Shown here in pieces: positions 1,449 to 1,731 of a DNA stretch of 64,000 nt (positions are counted from its first letter, which is position 1; each line of letters starts with the position of its first letter). The position numbers and the translations under genes were made by a program. This stretch comes from Escherichia coli (lineage in GTDB: Bacteria > Pseudomonadota > Gammaproteobacteria > Enterobacterales > Enterobacteriaceae), in NCBI RefSeq assembly GCF_041886205.1, contig NZ_CP169029.1; one strand, written 5' to 3'. The notes under the pieces were generated by a model. The model ran no database searches, was not told where the DNA came from, and worked only from the letters and a program-made list of their open reading frames with translations.

Positions 1449-1731
1449 GCCGGATGCGACGCTTGCCGCGTCTTATCCGGCCTACGGGATTGCACATGTA
1501 GGGCGGATAAGGCGTTCACGCCGCATCCGCCAGTGGCGCGGTGCAATTGCCGGATGCGATGCTTGCCGCGTCTTATCCGGCCTACGGGATTGCACATGTA
1601 GGGCGGATAAGGCGTTTACGCCGCATCCGCCAGTGGCGCGGTGCAATTGCCGGATGCGACGCTTGCCGCGTCTGATCCGGCCTTCGGGATTGCACATGTA
1701 GGGTGGATAAGACGTTTACGCCGCATCCGCC
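1449..1731. repeat. BIME: three tandem ~100-bp units, each containing two inverted REP palindromes (six REPs in all), between eutG and eutH
   Basis: Exact 100-nt periodicity (unit starts 1449, 1549, 1649) with REP-type GC-rich palindromes gccggatgcg...cgcatccggc; the spurious overlapping ORFs 1286..1701 are artefacts of this repeat. Confidence 0.85.

Follow-up and report, generated by a model that had tools for sequence, protein, structure and literature searches.

A BIME-2 array of variable unit number between eutG and eutH in the eut operon of Escherichia coli

A tandem array of REP sequences lies between eutG and eutH in the eut operon of Escherichia coli, and its presence raises the question of what kind of element it is and whether it could affect the genes on either side. 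The window analysed here is a stretch of 64,000 nucleotides of E. coli DNA, in which the array runs from 1449 to 1731 on the plus strand and comprises three 100-bp units with six REPs. Tandem Repeats Finder detects a single array here, at 1448-1732, of 2.8 copies with a period of 100 (96% matches, 0% indels, score 528). A repeat search recovers three copies with a start-to-start spacing of exactly 100 and 100 nt and identities of 100%, 97% and 84%, the third copy extending into the right flank. The initial annotation had described three near-identical units with an exact 100-bp period, each carrying two opposed REPs to give six in all, and both descriptions are borne out by the period, the spacing and the presence of three Z2-type REPs on the plus strand and three inverted Y-type REPs.

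The units follow one another head-to-tail, each consisting of a Z2-type REP (37 nt, GCCGGATGCGACGCTTGCCGCGTCTTATCCGGCCTAC), a 12-nt linker, an inverted Y-type REP (34 nt) and a 17-nt linker, which add up to 100 nt. The Z2-type REP of unit 1 (GCCGGATGCGACGC..GCGTCTTATCCGGCCTAC; 1449-1485, plus strand) has no mismatch to the REP pattern and folds as RNA into a hairpin of -22.8 kcal/mol. It is followed by the short linker S (GGGATTGCACAT), whose 12 nt are identical in all three units (1486-1497, 1586-1597 and 1686-1697, plus strand), and by the inverted Y-type REP of unit 1 (1498-1531, minus strand; GTAGGGCGGATAAGGCGTTCACGCCGCATCCGCC as read on the plus strand), a fuzzy REP match with a hairpin of -20.9 kcal/mol that aligns with the Y half of the Rfam naRNA4 model. 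The 17-nt linker l (AGTGGCGCGGTGCAATT; 1532-1548 and also 1632-1648, plus strand) is homologous to a linker of the REP325 array, and is 4 nt longer. In unit 2, the Z2-type REP (1549-1585, plus strand) carries a C>T change in the inner stem (GCGATGC), giving one pattern mismatch and a hairpin of -21.0 kcal/mol, and the inverted Y-type REP (1598-1631, minus strand) again folds at -20.9 kcal/mol. The Z2-type REP of unit 3 (1649-1685, plus strand; two pattern mismatches, -22.3 kcal/mol) is distinguished by TCTGATCC and by a foot reading CTTC instead of CTAC, changes that mark the last unit in other strains too. The inverted Y-type REP of unit 3 (1698-1731, minus strand) has two substitutions (GGGTGGATAAGACG) and no compensating change, and its hairpin is weakened to -11.8 kcal/mol. 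The degenerate REP pattern matched the three Z2 copies against 0.00 expected from 100 shuffles, and the three inverted Y copies were added by the fuzzy REP search. The foot tetranucleotide GTAG/CTAC is present in five of the six REPs, the exception being the Z2-type REP of unit 3, and the REPs, of 34 and 37 nt, fold into stems that contain an internal mismatch.

Other REPs occur in the window as a single Z-type copy at 23104-23139 (minus strand) and as a Y/Z pair at 44732-44765 (plus strand) and 44784-44819 (minus strand), 18 nt apart, whose Y copy shares the GGCGG..CCGCC form of the stem with the eut Y REPs. The window also contains a cluster of four tRNA genes at 36312-36706 (minus strand), of which three have the same Rfam score, and one more tRNA gene at 39405-39477 (plus strand).

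The genes that flank the array are well defined. The upstream ORF (232-1446, plus strand), which ends in the stop codon TAA at 1444-1446, reaches 890 bits on the NCBIfam EutG equivalog against a cut-off of 556, and the downstream gene (1763-2989, plus strand, with its ATG at 1763) reaches 873 bits on the NCBIfam EutH equivalog against a cut-off of 574. The RefSeq annotation of matching genomes likewise gives both flanking genes the names eutG and eutH, and eutA, eutB and eutC follow directly downstream of eutH. The array begins 2 nt past the eutG stop and ends 31 nt ahead of the eutH ATG, in agreement with the position directly after eutG and about 30 bp before eutH that had been assigned to it. 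It is wholly extragenic, lying between the eutG stop (1446) and the Shine-Dalgarno sequence and ATG of eutH (1749-1765), within a ribosome-free gap of 316 nt. The Shine-Dalgarno sequence AGGGAG (1749-1754, plus strand) stands 8 nt before the ATG and is kept in all genera examined; in each of 40 species-level loci, the intergenic sequence finishes in ..ACAGGGAGT.. or a close variant. With regard to the ends of the neighbouring genes, the longest eutG ORF starts at GTG 232 and encodes 404 aa, the EutG model aligns from residue 10 only and the RefSeq protein has 395 aa; the real start of eutG is probably 27 nt downstream of GTG 232. Further downstream, eutA (2986-4389) is directly followed by eutB (4401-5762), and this direct junction indicates a strain without the cryptic prophage CPZ-55, which in K-12 MG1655 adjoins eutA on its eutB-proximal side.

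Two classes of BIME have to be told apart. In the definition of Ton-Hoang et al., BIME-2 elements are tandem repeats of z2 and y REPs with a short linker between the REPs, in a copy number that varies among loci and strains, and BIME-1 elements consist of a y and a z1 REP in single copy, with an IHF site in the long L linker between them (PMC3333891). The eutG-eutH array is a classical BIME-2, with all of the sequence traits of that class and none of those that set BIME-1 apart. Its y and z2 REPs alternate in inverse orientation, with three Z2 copies on the plus strand and three inverted Y copies; its REPs are imperfect palindromes of 30-40 nt with a GTAG/CTAC foot; the copies are in tandem, with a short S linker and a flanking linker of the s/l/r type; its location is extragenic; and its unit number varies between strains, with verified alleles of 1, 2, 3, 4 and 5 units. 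A BIME-1 (RIP/RIB) element resembles it in having a pair of inverted REPs, and this assignment was rejected on the linkers of 12 and 17 nt, the z2-like second REP type, the tandem arrangement and the lack of an IHF consensus. The IHF consensus WATCAANNNNTTR has no match within 1449-1762, and its sole match in the window is at 11334. The initial annotation had proposed that the element may bind IHF or gyrase. Binding of IHF is rejected, since the element has no consensus and the IHF site is a trait of BIME-1, and only the gyrase half of that proposal is applicable to a BIME-2. The arrays at sucC-sucB and tldD-yhdP share with the eut array the z2 and y REPs, the S linker, the tandem amplification, the strain-variable copies and the extragenic location; gyrase cleavage is a demonstrated feature of these two and a plausible one of the eut array. 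Both this kind of element and the strain-variable copy number of BIME-2s are already known.

The sole Rfam matches in the region are to RF02564 (naRNA4). Two of them exceed the gathering score of 59.5, one at 1501-1582 (74.1 bits) and the other at 1601-1682 (73.8 bits), and both cover the model from end to end (positions 1-77). The naRNA4 model was built on the Y-linker-Z2 unit of REP325 (naRNA1-6), the yjdM-yjdN array of K-12 (PMC4550694), and the match marks the Y-linker-Z2 sequence common to BIME-2s, not a function or a demonstrated RNA gene. Qian et al. 2015 proposed for the REP325 RNAs a role as nucleoid-associated RNAs (PMC4550694), which would bind HU, bridge REP cruciforms and condense the chromosome, and the two matches above the gathering threshold could be read in favour of the same role for the eut array. 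A more recent preprint, which shares the author Adhya with the 2015 study, indicated, however, that deletion or overexpression of REP325 left the nucleoid volume unchanged, and that there is no stable ternary complex of HU, cruciform and naRNA4 and no HU-dependent long-range contact between REPs (10.64898/2026.03.23.713779). Moreover, the eut operon is silent unless induced. We consider a function of this type very improbable for the eut array.

REP325 is the closest array with experimental data; its unit and the eut unit have 85% mean column identity. In MG1655 it has the same exact 100-bp period, with 5.8 copies compared with 2.8 for the eut array, and it is likewise an alternating Y/Z2 tandem array that separates two co-directional genes in a single operon. 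The two differ in unit number, which is 3 here (1-5 across strains) and 6 in REP325, and in their linkers, the eut linker l being 4 nt longer than its REP325 counterpart and the other linker having 12 nt in eut and 17 in REP325. The stems differ by one compensated base pair each, with GGCGG..CCGCC in the eut Y REP where REP325 has GCCGG..CCGGC, and GCCGG..CCGGC in the eut Z2 REP where REP325 has GCCTG..CAGGC. These compensated changes suggest that the hairpins are maintained at the level of the family. Unlike REP325, the eut array opens with a Z2 REP placed 2 nt past the upstream stop codon.

Simpler functions for the intergenic region, namely a coding gene, an internal promoter or an intrinsic terminator, were also considered. 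An 84-aa ORF with an ATG start (1447-1701, plus strand) does cross the array, its ATG overlapping the eutG stop as TAAATG, and further ORFs of 71-110 codons run through it at 1350-1601 (plus strand), 1482-1697 (minus strand) and 1265-1597 (minus strand). Because the period of 100 is not divisible by 3, the reading frame changes from one unit to the next, and this, together with the variable unit number, precludes a conserved protein; the ORFs through the array are, for the same reason, artefacts of the repeat. ORF 1447-1701 has no NCBIfam family match, and its candidacy as a gene was rejected on these three grounds. Such ORFs are at risk of being mis-annotated as hypothetical proteins, and they are not genes. 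An internal promoter and an intrinsic terminator were rejected as well, since scans of 1449-1762 found no sigma-70-like promoter and no GC-rich hairpin followed by a U tract. The only terminator-like matches are within eutH at 1780-1798, where the scan flagged both strands of the palindrome CATCATGTACATCATGATG in the first codons of the gene (IIMYIMM); this palindrome is most likely a by-product of a peptide sequence conserved across genera. The probability that the array is a gene, a promoter or an intrinsic terminator is close to nil.

The variation in unit number that the initial annotation had anticipated for such elements is found at the eutG-eutH site itself. It was surveyed in two evenly spaced samples of the approximately 5,430 matching records, which gave about 98 informative rows, with unit numbers derived from how long the matched span was and 10 alleles verified by sequence. 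Two units are the most frequent state (about 40 rows, 41%), present in K-12, DH5alpha and CFT073, followed by a single unit (about 30 rows, 31%). Three units, as in this window and in BLR(DE3), account for about 8 rows (8%), and 4 or 5 units for about 8 more (8%), with 4 units in T28R and H22 and 5 in EC18, DG341-1 and FDAARGOS_1276. Strain 6EVA is 100% identical to the window. In the intact alleles, the gap measures 16 + 100n bp, with a 1-nt deletion in a few. A decayed single unit is found in about 7 rows (7%), which include O157:H7 and O55:H7, and about 5 rows (about 5-7%), E118 among them, have no REP and a different repeat at the site. REP-free spacers, that is, 0 units, were seen only in other genera and not in E. 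coli.

In the decayed allele of O55:H7 USDA5905 (748-846 of the extracted locus), the gap is 99 bp; most of the first REP is lost to a deletion of 17 nt, and the Y REP lacks one nucleotide of its loop and carries point changes as well. The O157:H7 rows have the same span length as this allele. In the O55:H7/O157:H7 lineage, no hairpin adjoins the eutG stop. In E118 (NZ_CP049196.1; 748-884 of the extracted locus), the same right flank is preceded by a GC-rich repeat of about 137 bp (..CCCCTCGCCCCTTTGGGGAGAGGGTTAGGGTGAGGGG...CCCTCACCCC..), which has no Rfam family match. This repeat is dispersed: the median genome has related copies at 6 places, and 381 of 5,426 genomes have a full-length copy. 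It seems to resemble the 'boxC' class of E. coli repeats.

The first and last units of the array keep marker substitutions of their own, and the inner units are near-identical to each other, a pattern that indicates in-register gain and loss of inner units. It points to slippage, unequal exchange or amplification mediated by TnpA-REP as the possible source, and the data fit all three.

This mode of variation can be explained without any selected role. In such a neutral account, REPs landed past the eutG stop as selfish repeats, possibly mobilised by the transposase TnpA-REP, unit number drifts by slippage or unequal recombination, and any effect on expression is incidental and small. TnpA-REP does cleave and recombine BIMEs in vitro, and a model of BIME amplification exists (PMC3333891). 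The freedom of unit number to vary from 1 to 5, the near-identical duplicates between end units that keep their markers, the uncompensated stem mutations (the Y REP of unit 3, at -11.8 kcal/mol, and a CCAGCC variant in K-12), the O55:H7 deletion of 17 nt that destroys the first REP and the different dispersed repeat that holds the site in about 5-7% of genomes are all in line with it. The element is indeed dispensable, being decayed in O157:H7 and O55:H7, replaced in about 5-7% of genomes and absent from several Citrobacter species.

Comparison with other species bears on this account in both directions. One genome per species was scanned with a degenerate pattern for the EutH N-terminus, which gave 42 loci, and the gap was extracted for 40 of them; E. 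albertii, E. fergusonii, E. coli proper and S. enterica subsp. enterica were not among the species recovered. A REP-free spacer of 27-32 bp is present in several Citrobacter species, in Yokenella and in a Pluralibacter genome, and the spacers of Citrobacter and Yokenella favour the neutral account. Gaps of 34-48 bp with a small hairpin occur in Morganella, Hafnia and Pluralibacter gergoviae, where the gene upstream shares only about 49% identity with EutG. A single REP is found in Salmonella enterica subsp. diarizonae, where it starts 2 nt past the stop, and in Citrobacter sedlakii; other Citrobacter species and Pseudocitrobacter have two REPs in a different arrangement; and Klebsiella has Klebsiella-type REPs in gaps of about 200 bp. 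Among the 40 loci, the 100-bp unit is restricted to Escherichia lineages, with from 1 unit (E. whittamii) to about 6, the latter in a 578-bp gap of a divergent 'E. coli' genome. Several genera carry REPs of their own kind just past the eutG stop, which implies that this position has been occupied repeatedly, and such repeated occupation suggests either a strong insertion preference or a benefit. The neutral account has to face this recurrence in Escherichia, Salmonella, several Citrobacter species, Pseudocitrobacter and Klebsiella, the compensated nature of the Y/Z2 differences from the REP325 copies, and the measurable effect of REP325 in the same kind of context (10.64898/2026.03.23.713779). 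We regard it as a possible explanation, although on balance not a likely one.

Two of the genomes call for a comment on their labels. In 'E. coli' SCPM-O-B-8794, the C-terminus of EutG is only 92% identical and the 578-bp array has different linkers, which suggests, as far as these sequences go, that it represents a divergent Escherichia lineage. In a metagenome-assembled genome labelled Citrobacter sp. HRGM_Genome_0066, the end of eutG is 98% identical to the window and the gap is a single unit of the E. coli type; on these two features the contig is probably Escherichia DNA.

The reading that we prefer, with a probability of roughly 0.6, is that the array is a BIME-2 copy-number allele (1-5 units) that would act on the mRNA of both sides, and its mechanism is drawn by analogy with better-known arrays. 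The array would be transcribed inside the eut polycistron and fold into up to six stable hairpins. These hairpins would block 3'-to-5' exonucleases, so that the upstream mRNA, from eutS to eutG, may outlive the downstream part. Together with the ribosome-free gap, they could cause a partial, partly Rho-assisted attenuation of transcription into eutH-eutA-eutBC-eutLK-eutR, and the net result would be a modest shift in the ratio of upstream to downstream expression, larger with more units. The predicted folding agrees with the formation of such structures. The whole region as RNA has z = -4.6 and is more stable than all 100 shuffles, and each single REP folds at -21 to -23 kcal/mol with the exception of the last Y (-11.8). 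The predicted minimum-energy fold of the region contains pairing between REPs of different units, so that more than one structure is possible in vivo.

Evidence for an effect of this kind comes from the sister array REP325, for which an influence on mRNA stability and partial termination, as the initial annotation had suggested for the eut element and its eutG:eutH ratio, has been shown experimentally (10.64898/2026.03.23.713779). REP325 stabilises the upstream yjdM mRNA and attenuates transcription into yjdN, and its deletion raises the downstream yjdN about 8-10-fold and lowers the upstream yjdM (10.64898/2026.03.23.713779). Read-through of REP325 increases from 23% to 39% with bicyclomycin, which indicates that part of the attenuation is Rho-dependent; REP325 fragments of 2-4 hairpins are insensitive to bicyclomycin, and only the 12-hairpin array is Rho-dependent (10.64898/2026.03.23.713779). 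Genome-wide, tandem gene pairs separated by REPs have higher upstream/downstream ratios (10.64898/2026.03.23.713779). By analogy, the eut array may block exonucleases and attenuate transcription to a weak or moderate degree, more strongly with more units. Since the fragments of 2-4 hairpins lack Rho dependence, the six hairpins of the three-unit allele may attenuate only weakly. The composition of the gap (C/G = 0.85) is G-rich, unlike the C-rich composition of typical Rho loading sites, and does not favour efficient loading of Rho.

The REPs between malE and malF are another precedent, in that they likewise lie between cistrons and are expected to stop 3'-to-5' exonucleases and to favour the upstream segment (PMC5927463). 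In that case, half-lives of 3.5 min for malE and 1 min for malFG have been measured (PMC5927463); the corresponding effect in eut is a predicted one. In addition, eut differs from malE-malF in that there is no obvious stoichiometric reason to favour its upstream segment.

A further point, added here to the earlier reading, concerns the first REP, which lies 2 nt from the eutG stop and belongs by position to a class reported to stall terminating ribosomes. REPs less than 16 nt from a stop codon have been reported to down-regulate the gene upstream at the level of translation (Liang et al. 2015, as cited in PMC12306157), a tmRNA-dependent reduction of the upstream protein being a trait of this class, and eutG falls within this distance (TAA at 1444-1446, stem from 1449, gap of 2 nt). 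The array shares this placement, within 15 nt of the stop, with stop-proximal REPs such as those of nrdAB, as attributed to Liang, Rudd and Deutscher 2015. It is possible, on this comparison, that terminating ribosomes stall at the eutG stop, in which case the yield of EutG may be lower. Proteomics of W3110, which carries 2 units, placed EutG among the least abundant Eut enzymes, at 7 on a scale on which EutQ is 100, against 27 for EutE (PMC11334477). The low level of EutG in W3110 is compatible with an effect of the REPs on eutG, and may be taken as a circumstantial hint. In the same data, the downstream proteins are not lower than the upstream ones (EutB 37, EutC 24, EutL 39; PMC11334477), and this lack of depletion makes strong polarity unlikely. 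In our literature search, no paper was found that treats eutG together with REPs, and no published transcript, protein or gyrase data on the array. Taken together, the comparisons suggest that the array probably tunes the expression of both sides to a modest extent.

The main role of the array could instead be exerted at the DNA level, as a strong, transcription-independent gyrase site or a topological insulator absorbing the supercoiling produced by eut transcription. Gyrase cleavage sites are enriched in BIME-2s, mostly in y REPs, and more so when transcription is blocked (PMC6379681), and the three y REPs of the element are of canonical form and are plausible sites of gyrase binding and cleavage. 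On the other hand, only a subset of BIME-2s is cleaved, 13 of them with at least 3 sites, and neither eutG nor eutH is named in the part of the Topo-seq supplementary text that was examined (PMC6379681). The RepRanger supplements do not mention eutG or eutH either. A gyrase role is in any case not exclusive of effects at the RNA level, and as the main role of the array it seems unlikely.

If the array acts on the mRNA as we propose, its unit number might serve as a heritable dial: the more units, the more strongly eutH-eutA-eutBC-eutLK-eutR would be attenuated in comparison with the shell and accessory genes upstream. This extension, which is itself built on analogy, is speculative and we hold it to be quite improbable. 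Because the activator EutR is encoded by the last gene of the operon, more units would then also lower the gain of the positive feedback. Were the dial real, E. coli lineages would differ in the sharpness and the strength with which the use of ethanolamine in the gut is switched on. Regardless of its effect, the site offers a natural allelic series in a medically relevant operon, with 1-5 units, decayed and replaced alleles at one and the same position, and this series could provide a ready-made test of the idea that REPs act as tunable dials.
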